A stretch of 59,247 bases of DNA from an uncultured Candidatus Saccharibacteria bacterium (lineage in GTDB: Bacteria > Patescibacteriota > Minisyncoccia > JACQLN01). The position numbers were made by a program, and so were the translations under genes. The notes under the pieces were generated by a model, which saw only the letters and a program-made list of their open reading frames with translations, made no database searches and was not told the origin of the DNA. Positions 13,729-55,691 of this stretch are shown one piece after another; within the stretch, counting starts at the first letter, position 1, and each line of letters begins with the position of its first letter. The stretch spans positions 1-59,247 of the forward strand of contig CAYIPG010000002.1 in assembly GCA_964365305.1 (NCBI GenBank), written 5' to 3'.

Positions 13729-14109
13729 ATGAATAACAAAGGTATCGCATTATTAGTTACACTAATTTTATTGGGTACGATTATCGCCACGGTTTTAAGT
13801 ATTTCTGTTTTGATAACCAGCGAGACCAAAATTACCCGTTTGGTGGATGATTCTGTTATGGCGGTTTATGCCGCGGACGCCGGTATGGAAAAAATGTTTT
13901 ACGCTTGTTCGGGCGACAGCGCCAAAATAACTCCTCCGCCGGATGGCCAGGCGTCTTTTACTAATAACAATATTGGCAATCTCGCTAGTTATATAGTTTG
14001 TATGGATAATAACAGCAGTGATCCTTGTACTAATACTTGCGCTGACGCTAAAGTTAGAAGCCGGGGGCAGTTTGGCGCAACCAGGAGGTCTTTTGAAGCG
14101 GATTACTAG
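13729..14109 (+). CDS. PilX-like minor pilus protein
   Basis: N-terminal KGIALLVTLILLGTII hydrophobic helix without the G-F/E motif. Last gene of the pilin row. Confidence 0.6.
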   Translation: MNNKGIALLVTLILLGTIIATVLSISVLITSETKITRLVDDSVMAVYAADAGMEKMFYACSGDSAKITPPPDGQASFTNNNIGNLASYIVCMDNNSSDPCTNTCADAKVRSRGQFGATRRSFEADY

Positions 14110-14116
14110 TAAAAAT

Positions 14117-16159
14117 ATGACTAAGCGGGAAGCCCAAGCATATATCATTAAGCTAAAAGCGGAGATTAATCATCACCGCTATCTTTATCATGTGTTGGAT
14201 AAAGAGGAGATTTCTCCAAGCGCTTTAGATGCTCTAAAGCGTGAACTTTTTAAACTGGAGCGGGAGTTTCCTGATTTAATAACTCCTGATTCTCCTAGTC
14301 AGCGGGTTGCGGGAAAGGTCTTGCCGTTTTTTAAAAAAGTTACGCACGCGGCGCCGATGCTTTCGTTGGAGGATGTTTTTAATGAGGTTGAATTTTCCGA
14401 GTGGCTGGCTCGCATATCAAAACTGGTGCCCAATGAGAAACTGTATTTTTTTGGCGAACTAAAAATAGACGGTTTCGCGGTTTCTTTGGTTTATAAAAAA
14501 GGAATTCTAGAAACCGGTTCCACTCGAGGCGATGGCCGAACCGGCGAAGATGTAACCAATAATATAAAGACCATAGAAGCGATACCCTTAAGTTTAGTTG
14601 AAATCAGAAAAGCGGATATTGATAAACTTGGACTTGATTATAACCATGTTAATAAGGCTATAGAATCGGGCGATCTAGAAATAAGAGGCGAGGTGTTTAT
14701 GACCAAGGCCTCTTTTAACAAGATCAATATTGAACAAAAAAGGTTGAACCTTCCTGAATATTCCAATCCTAGAAACACCGCTGCCGGCAGTATCAGGCAG
14801 TTGGATCCTCAACTAGCCGCTCGACGCAATTTGGATTTTTTGGCTTACGATATAGTAACTGATTTAGGCCAAGAGACCCATTCACGGGAGCATGCTTTGT
14901 TAAGACATTTGGGTTTTAAAACCGATAGTGAAGCCGAGCAACTGGGCAGTTCCCAAGCGGTGTCCAGTTTTTGGCAGAGGGCTCAAAAGAAAAGAGAAAA
15001 ATTGCCCTGGGAAATAGACGGTGTTGTTATTTCGGTAAACAATAACCAAATTTTTTCGCGTTTGGGCGTGGTGGGTAAAACGCCGCGAGGTATGGTAGCT
15101 TTTAAGTTTCCAGGTAAAGAAGCCACCACCAAAGTTGCTAATATTATTATCCAGGTCGGCCGGACCGGCGTCTTAACTCCAGTGGCAATTTTGGAGCCGG
15201 TGGATATTAACGGCGTCACAGTAACTCGGGCTACCTTGCATAATGAAGACGAAATTCGGCGTTTAGATATTCGGGTGGGCGATACAGTTATTGTTCAGCG
15301 AGCCGGTGATGTAATTCCTAATGTGGTCGCGGTTTTAAAAAATCTTCGTCCCAAAAATGCCAAACAGTTTCACTTTCCTAAAAGGTGTCCGGTTTGCGGC
15401 GGCGAGATTATTCGCTTCTCGGGCGAGGCGGCGCATAAGTGCGTTAATAAAAATTGCCCGGCCAAGAAGAGAGAAAATCTATATCATTTTGTTTCCAAAC
15501 GAGCTTTTAATATTGTGGGTTTAGGACCGGAAATAATAGATAAATTGGCGGATGCCGGTTTGATTAAAGACGCGGCTGATATATTTAAGTTAAAACCGGA
15601 AAATATAATTGAACTAGAAGGATTTGCCGAGGTCTCCGCAAAAAAGTTAGTTGGCTCAATCCAAAAATCAAAAAAGATAACACTCGCCCGATTTATTTAT
15701 TCTTTAGGCATAATTCAGGTGGGTGAAGAAACCGCCAATTTGCTCGCCCTTTATTTTGGCAACTGGGAAAATTTAGCGCGGGCATCGTCAGAGGAATTAG
15801 AAAAAATTCCGGGCGTTGGCTCGGCCGCTTCAACAAGTATTACGGCCTGGTTTAGCAATAAAAATAATAAGGACTTGGTGAAGCGGTTAACAAACAATAG
15901 TGTTGAAATTGAGTCAGTCAAACGCCTTAGCCAAAAACTAACAGGCCAAACCTTTGTTTTTACCGGCGCTTTGGACACAATTAGCCGCGACGACGCCAAA
16001 GAAAAAGTTCGCCTGATGGGCGGGGATGTTTCCGCTTCTGTTTCCAAAGAAACCGATTATGTGGTAGCCGGCGCCGAACCCGGTTCTAAATTTGATAAAG
16101 CCACCAAACTCGGCGTCAAAATAATTTCCGAAAAAGAGTTCTTAAATTTAATAAAATAA
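14117..16159 (+). CDS. ligA: NAD-dependent DNA ligase
   Basis: Adenylation motif ELKIDG, CPVCGG...C zinc finger, HhH and C-terminal BRCT-like region. ATG 14117 (MTKREAQ...) preferred over track start 14018, which overlaps the previous gene. Confidence 0.95.
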   Translation: MTKREAQAYIIKLKAEINHHRYLYHVLDKEEISPSALDALKRELFKLEREFPDLITPDSPSQRVAGKVLPFFKKVTHAAPMLSLEDVFNEVEFSEWLARISKLVPNEKLYFFGELKIDGFAVSLVYKKGILETGSTRGDGRTGEDVTNNIKTIEAIPLSLVEIRKADIDKLGLDYNHVNKAIESGDLEIRGEVFMTKASFNKINIEQKRLNLPEYSNPRNTAAGSIRQLDPQLAARRNLDFLAYDIVTDLGQETHSREHALLRHLGFKTDSEAEQLGSSQAVSSFWQRAQKKREKLPWEIDGVVISVNNNQIFSRLGVVGKTPRGMVAFKFPGKEATTKVANIIIQVGRTGVLTPVAILEPVDINGVTVTRATLHNEDEIRRLDIRVGDTVIVQRAGDVIPNVVAVLKNLRPKNAKQFHFPKRCPVCGGEIIRFSGEAAHKCVNKNCPAKKRENLYHFVSKRAFNIVGLGPEIIDKLADAGLIKDAADIFKLKPENIIELEGFAEVSAKKLVGSIQKSKKITLARFIYSLGIIQVGEETANLLALYFGNWENLARASSEELEKIPGVGSAASTSITAWFSNKNNKDLVKRLTNNSVEIESVKRLSQKLTGQTFVFTGALDTISRDDAKEKVRLMGGDVSASVSKETDYVVAGAEPGSKFDKATKLGVKIISEKEFLNLIK

Positions 16160-16188
16160 AATTATCAAACACCGAGTGTTTGATAATT
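16160..16188. repeat. 29-bp perfect palindrome AATTATCAAACAC-CGA-GTGTTTGATAATT
   Basis: Lies exactly between the ligA stop and the stop of the Y1 gene. Confidence 0.9.
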
Positions 16189-16864
16189 AAAGTTCATCAT
16201 CTATATCTATTCTGTATTTTTCTTCTAAACTTTCCTTAGCGCTACTTTTTTTGATAAAATCGTGATACTTGTAATTTTCGCTAAATTGACCAGTTATAAT
16301 ACCAGGAACCAGTAGTTGTCCCCACCTATTTGTCTCTAAATAATCTTGATAACTTGACCACTCATAATTATGTTCTCTGTTTTTCCAATGTTTTAATCCC
16401 CTTGGGTTTTTGTGTATATAAGCAGAAAGATGAAGAAGTTGGAGGTTGTCATTAATATGTACAGCTTTAAAAGGACCTTGAAATAGATGGCCTATTTTGC
16501 GGTATTTGGTATTAAAGTATTTTGTATATGCATTCTGCACTCGTTGCATATAGTCGGATATACCGTTGTCTTTTATCTCTTTCACAATGATATGAAAATG
16601 GTTTGGCATTAGTGTAAAACCAATTAGATTAACCATCTTGTCTTTCATAAATTTATCGATCCCCTTAATTTTATTAAACACTCGGTGTTTAATAAAATGG
16701 GTTACATTGTAGCCAATATTGTTAAAAGATTGTTCGGATTGCAGATGTAAAATAAGAAAAAGGAATCTAACATAATCTCTTTCGTTTGTGAAAATATTTT
16801 GTTTATTATTACCTCTGTTGAATATATGGAAATGTTCTCCGGGAGCAAATTTAGTTTTCCTCAT
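16187..16864 (-). CDS. IS200/RAYT-like HUH-Y1 transposase-family protein
   Basis: HUH motif LMPNHFHIIV and C-terminal YIHKNP tyrosine motif. Flanked by matching palindromes. Confidence 0.8.
   Translation of the reverse strand: MRKTKFAPGEHFHIFNRGNNKQNIFTNERDYVRFLFLILHLQSEQSFNNIGYNVTHFIKHRVFNKIKGIDKFMKDKMVNLIGFTLMPNHFHIIVKEIKDNGISDYMQRVQNAYTKYFNTKYRKIGHLFQGPFKAVHINDNLQLLHLSAYIHKNPRGLKHWKNREHNYEWSSYQDYLETNRWGQLLVPGIITGQFSENYKYHDFIKKSSAKESLEEKYRIDIDDEL
16669..16697. repeat. 29-bp perfect palindrome TTTTATTAAACAC-TCG-GTGTTTAATAAAA inside the Y1 CDS
   Basis: Encodes FIKHRVFNK. Same AAACAC/GTGTTT core as the flanking palindrome. Confidence 0.9.
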
Positions 16865-16925
16865 AGTTATATTTTAATCTATCGAACACTCGGTGTCTAA
16901 TAAAAATTTGATAGAAGGGACGCTT

Positions 16926-16961
16926 ATAAATAAAAATCCCCACCGGTTTTTTCCGGCGGGG
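16926..16961 (-). terminator. intrinsic terminator of the 39-aa ORF
   Basis: Minus strand: CCCCGCCGG-AAAAAA-CCGGTGGGG followed by ATTTTTATTT. Confidence 0.7.
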
Positions 16962-21035: not shown

Positions 21036-21064
21036 ATTTGTGCAAAACTGAGTTTTGCACAAAT
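21036..21064. repeat. 29-bp perfect palindrome ATTTGTGCAAAAC-TGA-GTTTTGCACAAAT
   Basis: 13+3+13 architecture, just after terminator 20997-21031 and upstream of secD. Confidence 0.88.
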
Positions 21065-28376: not shown

Positions 28377-29504
28377 ATGAACGAGCAAACAAAAAATAAG
28401 AAAGTATTTGTAGCTATATCAGGCGGAGTTGATAGTAGCGTTGCTTTGTTGTTGCTTAAAAATCAAGGTTACGATGTTACGGGCGTGTTTATGAAAAACT
28501 GGGCTGATCCGGCTTGGCCTTGCCCGTGGGCCGAAGATCGCGCCGACGCTTTGCGTGTCTGCGTCAAGTTGGGCATTCCTTTTGAGACCTTTGATTTTAC
28601 AAAGGAATACAAAGCCACGGTGGTTGATTATATGATTCGCGAATATACTTCGGGCCGAACACCTAACCCCGATGTGATGTGCAACAAAGAAATAAAGTTT
28701 GGCTTGTTTTTTGATAGAGCGATGCAGATGGGCGCGGATTATATCGCCACAGGGCATTATGTTAGGTTAGCGACAAGTGACAAGGGACAAGGGACAAGTA
28801 AGAATCAAAACATGTCGCTTCTACGGGCTCGCGATCTAAATAAAGATCAAAGTTATTTTTTATGGACTTTAACCCAAGCCAGGCTTAGGCAATGTTTGTT
28901 TCCGATCGGTGAAATTGAATCCAAAACCGAAGTTCGCCGGCTAGCGGCCGAATATAATCTGCCCGTGGCCGATAAGAAGGACTCGCAGGGTATTTGTTTT
29001 ATGGGGCCGGTGGATGTGGCCGAGTTTATCAAACCATATGTCAAAACCGCTATCGGAGATATTGTAACCACCTCCGGCCAAAAAATCGGCACGCACGCCG
29101 GTTTGGATTTTTTCACTATCGGTCAGCGCAAAGGCATCGGCATCGGCGGCACCGGGCCGTATTATGTGACTCAAAAAAATTACGAAACCAATACTTTGGT
29201 AGTTGCGCCAGCTGCTGATCAAACTTCTTTAGAGTCCAGCTCGCTTATTGCAAGCGATATAAGTTTCGTAAACGATCTCACGAGCATGCGATCGCATGCT
29301 CGTGAGATCGGAGAAGAATCAATCAAGATACAAGCATCAATTCGATATCGGCAAGAACCTGTTCCAGCGACTTTATCTAAGGTCGGAGATGATAAGTGGC
29401 GAGTAGATTTTGAAACTCCCGTCCGCGCTATCACCCCCGGCCAGTCGGTGGTTTTTTATCAGAGCGAAGAAATGCTCGGGGGAGGTGTTATTGACATAGT
29501 ATAG
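28377..29504 (+). CDS. mnmA: tRNA 2-thiouridine(34) synthase
   Basis: PP-loop SGGVDSS, KDQSYFLW, and C-terminal domain. ATG 28377 preferred over TTG 28362. Confidence 0.92.
   Translation: MNEQTKNKKVFVAISGGVDSSVALLLLKNQGYDVTGVFMKNWADPAWPCPWAEDRADALRVCVKLGIPFETFDFTKEYKATVVDYMIREYTSGRTPNPDVMCNKEIKFGLFFDRAMQMGADYIATGHYVRLATSDKGQGTSKNQNMSLLRARDLNKDQSYFLWTLTQARLRQCLFPIGEIESKTEVRRLAAEYNLPVADKKDSQGICFMGPVDVAEFIKPYVKTAIGDIVTTSGQKIGTHAGLDFFTIGQRKGIGIGGTGPYYVTQKNYETNTLVVAPAADQTSLESSSLIASDISFVNDLTSMRSHAREIGEESIKIQASIRYRQEPVPATLSKVGDDKWRVDFETPVRAITPGQSVVFYQSEEMLGGGVIDIV
28772..28799 (+). repeat. four tandem heptamers GACAAG(T/G) inside mnmA
   Basis: GACAAGT GACAAGG GACAAGG GACAAGT. Bracketed by AGCGACA / TGTCGCT. 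Confidence 0.85.
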
Positions 29505-29980: not shown

Positions 29981-30048
29981 TTTTCTCGCTTTAATCCAAT
30001 TTTAACCCAAGCCCTGTCACATGCTATACTTTTAAAATATTATACTTT

Positions 30049-30076
30049 GCATGAGATAACGATCGTTATCTCATGC
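30049..30076. repeat. 28-bp perfect palindrome GCATGAGATAACGATCGTTATCTCATGC upstream of wHTH-Cas2-like gene A
   Basis: Follows a TATACT -10-like box. The 26-bp core is identical to 30695-30720. Confidence 0.92.
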
Positions 30077-30129
30077 AATATTTAGTCCAATATCAAATTA
30101 TATATCAAGCTATATATCAACAAACTATT

Positions 30130-30699
30130 ATGAAATCCGGTGGGAAATTACAAAGATTGGGTCCAAATCAGCAAAAGGTTTTATTGCTTTTATTTGGCGG
30201 GGTGGGATTAATGTTATCCCAATCCATTAAGACACAATTTAGAGTTATTAAAGAGGTCTCTAAAGAATGGAAAAATATAAATAATTTGAGTTTGAGAAGA
30301 GCGATTACTACTTTATATAAATCCAAACTTATTTTAGAAAAAGAAAATCCAGACGGGACGACCACTATGTTTTTAACTGAAAAGGGTAAAGAGAAGGCCA
30401 TCACTTTTAATATAGAAACAATAAAAATTATGTCGCCAAAGAGATGGGATAAAAAATGGCGGTTAGTTGTCTTTGATATACCGGAAAAGAAAAGAAAGGC
30501 TCGCGATGCTTTGAGAGAGGTATTAAAGAAGATGGAGTTTTATGAATATCAAAAAAGCATTTTTATTCACCCTTACCATTGTAGAGATGAGTTAGATTAT
30601 ATCATTGAATTTTTTAGGATGAGACCTTATGTTAGGTTAATTGTGTCGGAGGAATTAGATAATGAATTACATCTTAGAAAGATTTTCAACCTATCATGA
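30130..30699 (+). CDS. winged-helix (PaaX-N-like) plus Cas2/VapD-like domain protein
   Basis: WDKKWRLVVFDIPEKKRKARDALREVLKKMEFYEYQKSIFIHPY matches the Cas2-like beta1-alpha1 pattern with conserved Asp. The track N-terminus from 30073 is low-complexity repeat DNA. Confidence 0.75.
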   Translation: MKSGGKLQRLGPNQQKVLLLLFGGVGLMLSQSIKTQFRVIKEVSKEWKNINNLSLRRAITTLYKSKLILEKENPDGTTTMFLTEKGKEKAITFNIETIKIMSPKRWDKKWRLVVFDIPEKKRKARDALREVLKKMEFYEYQKSIFIHPYHCRDELDYIIEFFRMRPYVRLIVSEELDNELHLRKIFNLS

Positions 30700-30724
30700 G
30701 ATAACGATCGTTATCTCATGATAG
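30691..30724. repeat. 34-bp perfect palindrome CTATCATGAGATAACGATCGTTATCTCATGATAG overlapping the stop codon of gene A
   Basis: Stop TGA 30697-30699 lies in the left arm. 26-bp core identical to the upstream copy. Confidence 0.92.
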
Positions 30725-34360: not shown

Positions 34361-34383
34361 TGTCCAACATCCAATGTTGGACA
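34361..34383. repeat. 23-bp perfect palindrome TGTCCAACAT-CCA-ATGTTGGACA
   Basis: 4 nt after stop 34357. Confidence 0.85.
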
Positions 34384-53102: not shown

Positions 53103-53125
53103 ATATCGGTTTGCGAAACCGATAT
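53103..53125. repeat. 23-bp palindrome ATATCGGTTT-GCG-AAACCGATAT
   Basis: 13 nt upstream of ATG 53138. Confidence 0.9.
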
Positions 53126-53137
53126 ATAATACGAATT

Positions 53138-53857
53138 ATGTATAGTAAAAAGTCATACCCAGGTAATTTGTATCATGTCCTTAATCGTGGTGTTGATAAG
53201 AGGATTATCTTTATCGATAAAGTTGATTATTTAAGATTTATTCGTATTTTGTACGATTTTAATAATATTGAACCGGTGAGTAATTTTAGTTATTTTTTTG
53301 CTAAACAAAAACAAGAAAATTCTATTGGTTTCGCAAACAGATATGGAGTTGGATATAATCAGGGTTCTAGAAAGGTGCTGGTTGATGTTTTGGCTTTTGT
53401 TCTTATGCCCAATCATTATCATTTATTATTAAAACCGCGAATTGAAAATGGTGTAACTCTTTTTATGAAGAAAATTAATATTGGCTATGCGAATTATTTT
53501 AATAAAAAATATGAACGGAGTGGTGCTTTATTCCAAGGGCGTTACAAATCTGTGATTGTGACTAAGGAAGCTCATTTTATACATTTACCTTATTATATTC
53601 ATGCTAATCCTTTGGACTTGGTTATTCCTGAATGGAGAGATGGAAAAGTAAGAAACCCAAAAAAAGCAATGAACTTTTTGAAAAGTTATCGTTGGAGTAG
53701 TTTTAGTGATTATATCGGTCGTGTGAATTTTCCACTAACAACTCAAAGGGATTTTCTTTTGGAATTTGTAGGTGGAACTACAAGGTACAAAATAAATTTT
53801 TCAGAGTGGCTTCGAGCGATGGATATGGATAAACTAAACAGCTTTACTTTGGAATAA
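53138..53857 (+). CDS. IS200/RAYT-like HUH-Y1 transposase-family protein, paralog 2
   Basis: LMPNHYHLLLKP (HUH) and YYIHANP (Tyr motif). ATG 53138; the track start 53081 reads through the flanking palindrome. Confidence 0.8.
   Translation: MYSKKSYPGNLYHVLNRGVDKRIIFIDKVDYLRFIRILYDFNNIEPVSNFSYFFAKQKQENSIGFANRYGVGYNQGSRKVLVDVLAFVLMPNHYHLLLKPRIENGVTLFMKKINIGYANYFNKKYERSGALFQGRYKSVIVTKEAHFIHLPYYIHANPLDLVIPEWRDGKVRNPKKAMNFLKSYRWSSFSDYIGRVNFPLTTQRDFLLEFVGGTTRYKINFSEWLRAMDMDKLNSFTLE
53323..53343. repeat. degenerate intragenic copy TATTGGTTT-CGC-AAACAGATA
   Basis: Encodes SIGFANRY. Differs at 2 positions from the 3' flank copy. Confidence 0.8.
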
Positions 53858-53863
53858 TTTAAT

Positions 53864-53884
53864 TATCGGTTTCGCAAACCGATA
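53864..53884. repeat. 21-bp palindrome TATCGGTTT-CGC-AAACCGATA
   Basis: 6 nt after stop 53857. Its last base is the A of the next ATG. Confidence 0.9.
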
Positions 53885-54969: not shown

Positions 54970-55593
54970 ATGGACGAACAAAATAATTCAGACGGTCAAA
55001 ATAGTCAGGAATTTGATAAAAAAGAACGCCGCGAGTTGAGGCGTCAGGAAGAAGAACAACAGCAGGCGTCTAGACAGATACACAAAAAGACAAAAAAGAT
55101 ATTTGTTTGGATTGGAGTTGTTGCTGTTTTGGCGTGGGGCGGTTGGGGTGTTTACAAATGGGTCAAGACATCTGAAGCCGATAAACCCGGCGAGGCCATT
55201 TCTATTCAACCGGCCGAGCATATTCAGCCCGGCGAACCTTTGCCTGGTTTATATCTTTCCAATCCGCCGGTCTCGGGTTGGCACTATGGTCAAACGGCGG
55301 AATGGGGTATTTATGATAAAGAATTGATTGATCAGAATGTTATTCATAATCTAGAGCATGGCGGCATTTGGATTTCTTACAAGCCCGACGCGCCGACGGA
55401 ACTTATCGCCAAATTAAAAGAGGTGGCGGGCAGATACAGTCGGAAAGTGATATTGGCTCCGCGCGCGGCCAACGATTCCATAATCGCTGTGGCCGCTTGG
55501 GGGCGGTTGGATAAATTTGGTTATTTTGACGAAGCCCGCATTGTAAAATTCATCAAGGCCTTCAAAGACAAAGGCCCCGAATTTGTTCCATAA
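54970..55593 (+). CDS. DUF3105-like membrane-anchored protein
   Basis: TM, then HNLEHGGIWISYKPD motif. Confidence 0.7.
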   Translation: MDEQNNSDGQNSQEFDKKERRELRRQEEEQQQASRQIHKKTKKIFVWIGVVAVLAWGGWGVYKWVKTSEADKPGEAISIQPAEHIQPGEPLPGLYLSNPPVSGWHYGQTAEWGIYDKELIDQNVIHNLEHGGIWISYKPDAPTELIAKLKEVAGRYSRKVILAPRAANDSIIAVAAWGRLDKFGYFDEARIVKFIKAFKDKGPEFVP

Positions 55594-55620
55594 ATGTTAA
55601 ACATCGGATGTTTAACATTT
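55592..55620. repeat. 29-bp perfect palindrome AAATGTTAAACAT-CGG-ATGTTTAACATTT
   Basis: 13+3+13. Overlaps the stop codon 55591-55593. Confidence 0.88.
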
Positions 55621-55663: not shown

Positions 55664-55691
55664 TGTGCCAAGCTTAGCTTGGCGCAGGGAT

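Follow-up and report, generated by a model that had tools for sequence, protein, structure and literature searches.

A Y1 HUH Gene with Three Copies of One Hairpin

We found that a single gene in a 59,247-bp stretch of DNA from an uncultured Candidatus Saccharibacteria bacterium (contig CAYIPG010000002.1, positions 1 to 59,247; hereafter the window) displays the same short hairpin at three places: across its stop codon, within its own reading frame and upstream of its start. The gene lies between ligA (14018-16159, plus strand) and gatC/gatA (from 17373, plus strand), and its product is a Y1 HUH nuclease, as had been proposed from its PNHFH and YIHKNP motifs. The translated open reading frame (ORF) features LMPNHFH and AYIHKNP, with the HUH motif (NHFH) at residues 88-91, the catalytic tyrosine Y149 in YIHKNP (149-154) and a WSSY tail, and matches Pfam PF01797 Y1_Tnp (E 7e-10, 39.5 bits against a cut-off of 23); NHFH, Y149 and other core residues are invariant across 111 homologs. 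Against the NCBIfam equivalog model for the REP-associated tyrosine transposases (RAYT; NF047646), it scores 38.6 bits, under the cut-off of 80. Its AlphaFold2 model has a predicted local distance difference test score (pLDDT) of 87.5, and the top solved folds recovered with Foldseek are 4er8, 2xm3, 2a6m and 2vjv, with a probability of 1.00. The closest is the E. coli RAYT with its REP (repetitive extragenic palindromic) hairpin (4er8; E 1.3e-6); ISDra2 and IS608 TnpA come next, and a sequence-profile search against the PDB yields weak matches that are confined to these same proteins. Residue 68 corresponds to residue 38 of E. coli RayT, with about 30 extra residues before beta2, and the pLDDT, which elsewhere exceeds 90, falls to 70 and 59 over residues 51-70. 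A Pfam scan of the C-terminal tail recovered no helix-turn-helix (HTH) domain.

We term the three hairpins DN (downstream), IN (intragenic) and UP (upstream; Table 1). DN occupies the entire gap from the ligA stop codon (16157-16159) to that of the HUH gene (16187-16189) and is directly followed on the minus strand by TTATTTTATT, an arrangement that a generic promoter/terminator scan finds terminator-like. IN codes for residues 56-65, within the segment of low model confidence, and its loop constitutes codon 61 (CGA, Arg). UP is 88% complementary to the DN copy over its 24 nt, and it is well formed in the 77% identical ortholog (L085). The coding-strand loops are CGA in UP and IN and TCG in DN. 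When folded as DNA, DN and IN reach about -10.2 to -10.7 kcal/mol (z -8 to -9), and UP is unstable in the window (-1.5 kcal/mol). The original prediction had described all three: the perfect 29-bp palindrome at the stop is there as stated, with 13-bp arms, and so is the degenerate copy upstream of the start; the intragenic palindrome, which had been placed at 16669-16697, is real and perfect, although it is in fact two bases longer. The view that the palindrome is private to this gene also holds in the 59-kb window, where its 13-mer core, AACACNNNGTGTT, is found only at this locus.

Perfect palindromes with a 3-nt loop are strongly over-represented in the window, with four observed versus 0.01 expected for arms of at least 13 bp and nine versus 0.46 for arms of at least 9 bp; when nine or more paired positions are required and a single mismatch is tolerated, there are 11 such hairpins versus 3.3 expected. 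Allowing at most one mismatch, the AACACNNNGTGTT core occurs three times in the 59,247 bp, always inside the same 740 bp. As 17 of 100 shuffles also reach three occurrences, the count by itself is unremarkable and the signal lies in the clustering. No further core copies that would point to REP-like dispersal are found in the window, and the 334 kb flanking the homologs at 75 loci (see below) hold only 14 extra copies, mostly less than 500 bp from the gene. We accordingly reject high-copy REP behavior for the sequence examined. An Rfam search with the hairpins returned no match, apart from one sub-threshold hit to Yfr10 (E 0.3) that we take as chance.

Table 1. Coordinates of the HUH genes, their hairpins and associated elements in the window.
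Feature	Position	Strand	Remarks
Y1 HUH nuclease gene, RAYT/TIRYT-like	16187-16864	-	225 aa; motifs, Pfam, AlphaFold2 model, solved-fold match
Downstream hairpin (DN)	16160-16188		perfect 13-bp arms, AATTATCAAACAC-CGA-GTGTTTGATAATT; overlaps the HUH stop codon
Intragenic hairpin (IN)	16668-16698		perfect 14-bp arms; plus-strand loop TCG; encodes FIKHRVFNK
Upstream hairpin (UP), degenerate	16880-16903		core 16885-16897, AACACTCGGTGTC, one mismatch
Predicted promoter	16871-16899	-	-35 TAGACA, 17-nt spacer, -10 TAAAAT; 10/12 match
G+C-rich intrinsic terminator of the upstream unit	16938-16961	-	outer limit of the cassette; same layout in L081 and L085
Second Y1 HUH paralog	53138-53857	+	239 aa; 32% identical to the first; founder of family 2
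Second cassette, upstream hairpin	53103-53125		ATATCGGTTT-GCG-AAACCGATAT; overlaps -10 TATAAT
Second cassette, degenerate in-frame copy	53323-53343		TATTGGTTT-CGC-AAACAGATA; encodes IGFANRY
Second cassette, downstream hairpin	53864-53884		TATCGGTTT-CGC-AAACCGATA; loop inverted relative to the upstream copy
Orphan hairpin upstream of secD	21036-21064		inside a 65-nt segment absent from the 90% relative L081
Orphan hairpin	34361-34383		TGTCCAACAT-CCA-ATGTTGGACA
Orphan hairpin	55592-55620		AAATGTTAAACAT-CGG-ATGTTTAACATTT; core equals the hairpin class of L019, L045 and L055
Orphan hairpin	about 55664-55686		family-type

The Three Copies Co-Vary across a Large Patescibacterial Family

Homologs of the 225-residue protein constitute a family (family 1) of more than 2500 clusters at 90% identity, nearly all of them patescibacterial; these homologs are full-length and show about 60% identity. 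We fetched 80 genomic loci, roughly half of which display an identical 11-mer, ACAC-TCG/CGA-GTGT, at three fixed places, namely 20-50 nt ahead of the ATG, within the coding sequence (CDS) at nt +177 and just after the stop; the remaining loci feature another palindrome at the same three places (e.g., AAGC-CGA-GCTT, ACAT-CGG-ATGT or ACCT-CGG-AGGT). The counts below are from the 75 loci with a clean gene model. A hairpin is present as UP in 64, as IN in 57 and as DN in 63 of the 75 loci, with all three in 50, and in 53 loci IN is centered on the middle base of codon 61 (nt +181).

The three sites match each other within a locus much better than they match those of other loci: the identity of their 21-mers is 17.7-18.8 of 21 within a locus versus 14.1-15.1 of 21 between loci, a difference matched by none of 10,000 permutations and retained by the outer arm positions alone. 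The similarity between the flanking hairpins and the CDS stops at the hairpin edges. Several metagenome-assembled genomes (MAGs) hold two or three family-1 copies, and the hairpins of paralogs inside one MAG are always different. On the strand bearing the YCG loop, stem position 3 has 11 G.T and no A.C wobbles; as all 11 cases come from one related hairpin class, this strand preference is a hint only.

Flank-hairpin doublets, 14 nt apart and with opposite loop orientation, are seen at three loci (L022, L037 and L068), where they form a larger REPIN-like palindrome. In one synteny group (L031, L037, L040, L052, L062 and L075), the 5' end of a tRNA gene, GCGGGATTAGTTTAGTGG, lies 4-20 nt past the DN hairpin.

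DNA-Level Constraint on the Intragenic Copy and Inversion of Its Loop

The original prediction had set as a test whether homologs conserve the intragenic palindrome as DNA more strictly than their protein requires. Both its pairing and its codons show that they do. On average, 8.79 of the 12 arm pairs of IN are complementary versus 6.16 expected from the peptide and the codon usage of the family, and the excess is significant (P<0.05) in 45 of the 75 loci. The synonymous choice is likewise skewed: valine at position +1 is GTG in 40/44 cases versus 16% elsewhere in these genes, serine at the loop codon (position 0) is TCG in 28/31 versus 8.5%, histidine at -1 is CAC in 41/50 versus 31%, and GTA, which makes up 30% of the valine codons elsewhere, is never used for the valine at -3.

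The loop of IN reads either YCG or its reverse complement CGR, such that residue 61 is either Ser (TCG) or Arg (CGA/CGG). All eight combinations of loop orientation over the three sites occur and are about equally common. The DN arms of the window and L081 are identical to those of L085, with the loops opposite. In the inspected loci of the ACAT-CGG-ATGT class, the IN loop encodes Arg (CGG) and in no case Pro (CCG), although the flanking hairpins use both, which suggests that loop flips are filtered by selection on the protein. The non-canonical loops of family 1 (TGA, TCA, TGG and CCA) are mostly one CpG-to-TpG or CpG-to-CpA transition away from YCG/CGR, suggesting a deamination-type decay of the central CpG. 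We also considered an internal promoter at the IN copy that feeds a start at Met72 and dropped it, as Met72 is not conserved among the homologs.

A Second Cassette Founds a Family with a Hypervariable Peptide

The window holds a second cassette of the same design (53103-53884; Table 1), whose in-frame copy is identical to its downstream copy at 19 of 21 positions. The corresponding family 2 comprises more than 4200 clusters at 90% identity, of which we sampled 67 non-redundant metagenomic loci. A copy of the flanking hairpin with at most three mismatches is found in the gene's own CDS in 81% of cases versus 6% in other CDSs, at a median position of nt 180. When families 1 and 2 are aligned, their IN sites map to one common inter-element segment, and the upstream hairpins of family 2 likewise abut or overlap the -10 box. 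Both sides have changed in 11 of the 12 stem pairs of the family-2 flanking hairpins; as the hairpins were chosen for being palindromic, the percentage of paired positions is circular and only their diversity is informative. This diversity is far greater than in family 1, and the peptide at the site is hypervariable in both sequence and length. In one locus (L092), 29 identical nt occupy all three sites, with further examples in L113, L140, L142, L151 and L162. The family-2 peptide at the site is plainly dictated by the hairpin. At similar protein divergence, the flanking hairpins are conserved in family 1, where the peptide is constrained, and diverse in family 2, where it is not; this contrast favors a real coupling of the internal and flanking copies.

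These observations dispose of the converse possibility, namely that a conserved peptide gives rise to the palindrome incidentally and that the flanking copies are mere gene fragments. The family-1 peptide F[VI]KH[RS]VFN is fairly conserved, as such an origin would have it; however, the strong synonymous-codon skew and the maintenance of the palindrome under a hypervariable peptide in family 2 refute it, and the Arg/Ser switch that follows loop inversion and the end of the flank/IN similarity at the hairpin further speak against it. We consider its chances negligible.

The Upstream Hairpin Overlaps a Predicted Promoter

The predicted promoter of the first cassette was found independently by a generic promoter scan. 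Its -35 element sits in the left arm of UP, and its -10 box is separated from the ATG by 6 nt, i.e., the transcript would be leaderless. Across family 1, a -10 box (at most one mismatch to TATAAT) is present in 52 of 64 loci, and among these 52 the center of UP lies upstream of it by either about 15 nt (12-17; 24 loci) or about 28 nt (26-31; 20 loci). In our reading, both phasings leave exactly 17 nt between the -10 box and a -35-like hexamer of an arm (TAGACA, TTGAAC or TTGACA). In 29 of the 52 loci, 6-8 nt separate the end of the -10 box from the ATG, leaving no room for a Shine-Dalgarno sequence, which suggests family-wide leaderless mRNAs. UP copies also often show an A-to-G change (TAAACA to TAGACA) that is absent from IN and DN, which we read as the mark of additional selection on the promoter.

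This layout bears on whether the hairpins act in RNA, i.e., in mRNA stability, termination or translational control. IN and DN are both transcribed and DN is terminator-like; however, UP lies upstream of the -10 box, just past the terminator of the neighboring unit, and so remains outside the mRNA, leaving DNA, not RNA, as the level common to the three sites. Further, in the AAAC-CGA-GCTT class the coding strand bears A.C mismatches and the G.T wobble is on the opposite strand in 11/11 cases, and the hairpins have no Rfam match. Together, these points render an RNA-level role highly improbable.

Intragenic auxiliary operators are an established design in bacterial regulation (e.g., lac O2 and gal OI). 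The palindromes could alternatively be double-stranded operators for a symmetric dimer, with the protein being a domesticated repressor and hairpin extrusion being irrelevant. The overlap of UP with the -35 element or the spacer, the free orientation of the loop, as for a two-fold symmetric duplex site, and that precedent of intragenic operators all fit this proposal. Against it, the catalytic HUH and Tyr residues are invariant in all homologs, the nearest solved folds bind single-stranded DNA hairpins, and the central YCG/CGR is conserved with outer positions that are never self-complementary, which preserves a 3-nt loop and not an uninterrupted duplex palindrome. On balance, we regard such operators as unlikely. 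Of the roles that the original prediction had offered for the intragenic copy, an autoregulatory site is possible and gains some support from the overlap of UP with the -35 element of the promoter, and a cleavage site is likewise possible.

Resident-Like Behavior and Concerted Change in Place

The gatCA-HUH-ligA context of the window is shared by three orthologs with 90% (L081), 77% (L085) and 69% (L001) identity, and in two others at 55% (L036 and L080) the HUH gene still adjoins gatA or ligA. The HUH gene diverges at about the pace of these neighbors: its identity to the window is 90% in L081 (gatA 91%), 77% in L085 (ligA 68%), 69% in L001 (gatA 76%, ligA 67%) and 55% in L080 (gatA 55%, ligA 45%). 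Syntenic orthologs that have kept their neighbors can nevertheless display different hairpin classes at all three sites (e.g., encoding HRM in L008 versus RRR in L014 and L018), and the same concerted change of the three sites in place is seen in L020, L028, L068 and L070. Four independent contigs with the 90% ortholog (L081-L084) end exactly 51 nt past the stop, shortly beyond DN and inside the 3' end of ligA; since the hairpin arms are shorter than assembler k-mers, we do not read these shared ends as a repeat signal, and strain heterogeneity or an assembly effect is possible.

The original prediction had proposed a REP-RAYT or IS200-like unit of about 740 bp. The REP-RAYT-like part stands; the IS200-like part does not, given the gatCA-ligA synteny, the housekeeping pace of divergence and the Y...NP motif. 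An active IS200-like insertion sequence (IS), with the flanking hairpins as its ends and the internal copy as an alternative end, would be in keeping with the compact unit of about 740 bp, with its subterminal hairpins and left-end promoter, with several paralogs per genome and with a 65-nt hairpin-bearing indel between close relatives (see below). However, the synteny of orthologs is conserved and they diverge like housekeeping neighbors, the paralogs of one genome are diverged and have different hairpins, and no identical copies were seen; further, a search of viral contigs (IMG/VR) recovered no relatives of the protein. In addition, the motif is Y...NP rather than Y...Q and the protein has 225 aa as opposed to about 150 (PMC6006769). 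The HUH gene behaves as a resident gene and not as an active IS, which we hold to be very unlikely. The suggestion that the intragenic copy is a recombination scar does not fit either, as the site tracks the flanks for the whole existence of the family.

A Cassette Proposed to Be Kept Matched to Its Own Hairpin

The explanation that we favor, with somewhat better than even confidence, is a vertically inherited Y1 HUH cassette of the RAYT/TIRYT type into which its cognate hairpin was inserted in frame, and is kept matched to the hairpins in its flanks. It builds on the anatomy, conservation, co-variation, loop flips, promoter phasing and overlap, and vertical inheritance seen at these loci. By analogy to TnpA_REP, the HUH protein likely recognizes the hairpins, and we infer that it acts on single-stranded DNA, drives their homogenization and autoregulates its own gene. 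The cassette would be a compact transcription unit that starts at the terminator of the neighboring unit and runs through a hairpin arm serving as the -35 element, a -10 box and a leaderless ATG and CDS to a stop codon placed on the second hairpin. The same hairpin would be borne in frame at codons 56-65, in a surface segment of about 30 aa that canonical Y1 enzymes lack, and the peptide that it encodes would be a passenger of the DNA element. An ongoing homogenizing process would keep the three copies alike in place. Its most likely agent is the enzyme itself, binding, cutting and rejoining folded single-stranded hairpins in cis; alternatively, template switching or short-tract gene conversion could be at work. 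The palindromic nature of the arms would permit copying in either alignment, and the 3-nt loop would flip as a result. The probable pay-off lies in cis-binding, whereby the enzyme at UP would occlude its own promoter, with IN and DN serving as auxiliary sites.

Several observations weigh against this explanation. The free loop orientation is a better fit for a symmetric double-stranded site than for strand-specific recognition of single-stranded DNA. A loop-oriented logo of 104 flanking hairpins has no conserved asymmetric flank and no GT[AG]G foot. The differences between IN and the flanks (16 synonymous, 46 non-synonymous and one stop) give no signal against the 18.5% synonymous changes expected; coding-forbidden differences are not enriched, so these data do not bear out a homogenization limited solely by protein-level selection. 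In six strain-level contigs from Hainich, the hairpins are identical to those of the window, with no ongoing variation or loop flips. Finally, IN is dispensable: about a quarter of the family-1 loci have lost it with the flanks still matched (L039, L043, L048 and L078), and the in-frame copy of the second window cassette has decayed at two synonymous sites.

The last two points count equally for IN having no function at all, in which case it would be an in-frame REP tolerated in a peripheral loop and similar to the flanks only through cis copying by the enzyme or by recombination. The retention of the gene at the loci that have lost the site, the position of the peptide inside a low-confidence insertion of the AlphaFold2 model and the published precedent of subclass 2.4, together with its interpretation (PMC6006769), are all in line with this. 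Nevertheless, IN has been maintained at a single position across two families with no more than 32% identity and is retained nearly as often as the flanks (57 versus 63-64 of 75), and the existence of a second, independent subclass with REPs in its own genes suggests that either the cis bias is strong or the copy brings a benefit. A functionless IN is, thus, a possibility that we take seriously but doubt. The opposite proposal, that IN is a working third site, i.e., a protein-shielded reference from which the flanking sites are re-copied in cis, and the reverse, strikes us as rather unlikely as well. It would explain why each paralog has a private, orthogonal hairpin, and why the flanks evolve slowly in family 1 and fast in family 2. 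If true, it would provide a built-in device for the co-evolution of enzyme and site and a route to Arg/Ser switching driven by loop inversion.

The role of RAYT-like domesticated Y1 nucleases has been a long-standing question since their description, and the cassettes described here add a very large uncharacterized branch, made up of the two families, that may be widespread in Patescibacteria. Each is a minimal, self-contained unit of one gene and one private hairpin at three fixed positions; hence, the partners of the enzyme are unambiguous and a 30-mer suffices to assay binding or cleavage. The activity of the enzyme on its own locus has a natural readout in the three-way co-variation, the flipping of the loops and the peptide dictated by the hairpin. 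For annotation, genes labeled "transposase" here behave as resident genes, and the short perfect palindromes beside HUH genes, orphans included, are structured elements that are easily mistaken for terminators.

Orphan Hairpins and Other Palindromes in the Window

Four family-type hairpins are intergenic, outside both cassettes and have no HUH gene beside them (Table 1). At the position of the one upstream of secD, where the window has only the hairpin, a homologous locus (L023) has an HUH gene directly upstream of secD. These orphans may be remnants of lost cassettes or small mobilized units. A separate palindrome family with a CGATCG center is found at 30047-30078, 30691-30724 and 29273-29310, of which the first two have TTATCTCATG arms and the third differs. 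The first two frame ORF 30073-30699, which encodes a PaaX-like protein with a Cas2-like domain, one covering its start region and the other its stop, so that this gene, too, is flanked by palindromes of its own; the third is located within the CDS of an mnmA-like tRNA methyltransferase.

Comparison with Known Y1 and HUH Systems

The Y1 proteins have been divided into 12 subclasses (Quentin et al. 2018; PMC6006769). Within this scheme, the motifs of the window cassettes place them in class 2, with a signature like that of subclass 2.1; the assignment follows from comparing motifs and not from a phylogeny. Like the RAYT/TnpA_REP REPtrons (e.g., E. coli RayT, 4er8), they feature a Y1 HUH fold with the Y...NP motif (YIHKNP in the first cassette and YIHANP in the second), low copy number, diverged paralogs, vertical inheritance and cognate palindromes at the gene flanks, one palindrome per paralog. 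TnpA_REP enzymes cut and rejoin their cognate single-stranded REPs and co-evolve with them (PMC8266576). Unlike the REPtrons, the window family has no GT[AG]G foot and no high-copy dispersal in the sequence examined, scores under the NCBIfam RAYT cut-off and has about 30 extra residues before beta2; conversely, E. coli rayT, taken as a control, has REPs only in its flanks and none in its CDS.

Subclass 2.1, which equals group 1 of Bertels and the TIRYTs of De Nocera (2013), has no REP-like sequences found, and inverted repeats, some of them self-complementary, flank its genes (PMC6006769). The window proteins share with it the NH[YF]H motif (NHFH/NHYH), LFQG (with FQ replacing W), Y[IV]H.NP, a WSS (SS-containing) tail and a length of 225 and 239 aa versus about 230-240 aa, with a median of 238 aa, in the subclass. 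The TIRtrons of this subclass, with flanking inverted repeats that are possibly self-complementary or overlap the gene ends and a low repeat copy number, are also similar, and the low copy numbers of group 1 agree with the counts in the window and the homolog flanks. Unlike subclass 2.1, the window has short perfect hairpins in the flanks and a third in frame; its flanking repeats are A+T-rich hairpins without the GGGGWSAS terminal inverted repeat (TIR) motif of the TIRYTs, and no HTH tail is recovered by Pfam.

IS200/IS605 TnpA (IS608 and ISDra2) likewise combines a Y1 HUH fold and a compact unit with subterminal hairpins at both ends. It differs in having multiple near-identical copies and two ends on the same strand in a fixed orientation, with a Y...Q tyrosine motif and about 150 aa in IS200 as opposed to Y...NP in RAYT class 2 (PMC6006769, Table 1). 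Palindromic repeats translated within host proteins are known from the Rickettsia palindromic elements (RPEs) and intragenic REPs (PMC3733652); unlike the window hairpin, these land in unrelated genes and are not matched to the flanks of a cognate enzyme.

An HUH enzyme site within the CDS of the enzyme itself is found in gene A of phiX174, as in the window; there, however, the enzyme is of the Y2 type and the site serves as a replication origin.

The closest parallel for the intragenic copy is subclass 2.4, for which in-frame REP insertions inside the tnpA_REP genes have been described as a "unique feature of subclass 2.4"; these insertions are located between the HuH and Tyr motifs, differ in length and were read as tolerated and peripheral (PMC6006769, Fig. 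S10). The statement in the original prediction that an intragenic copy is part of neither the RAYT nor the IS200/IS605 paradigm was, therefore, overstated, and the general phenomenon is already known. As in subclass 2.4, the window hairpin is a cognate palindrome in the gene's own, unbroken reading frame in a peripheral variable region. In contrast to subclass 2.4, with its WQ and YIxNNP motifs and its insertions of varying number and length in the loop between beta3 and alphaC, the first window cassette has FQ and YIHKNP and a single copy at codons 56-65, before the HUH motif, and the three-way co-variation and loop inversion extend here across two families. As far as our literature searches show, four aspects appear to be new: the occurrence of the feature in a second, unrelated subclass; a lone copy whose codon position, ahead of the HUH motif, is fixed and common to two deep families; the quantitative co-variation of the three copies in place; and a loop inversion that switches a codon.

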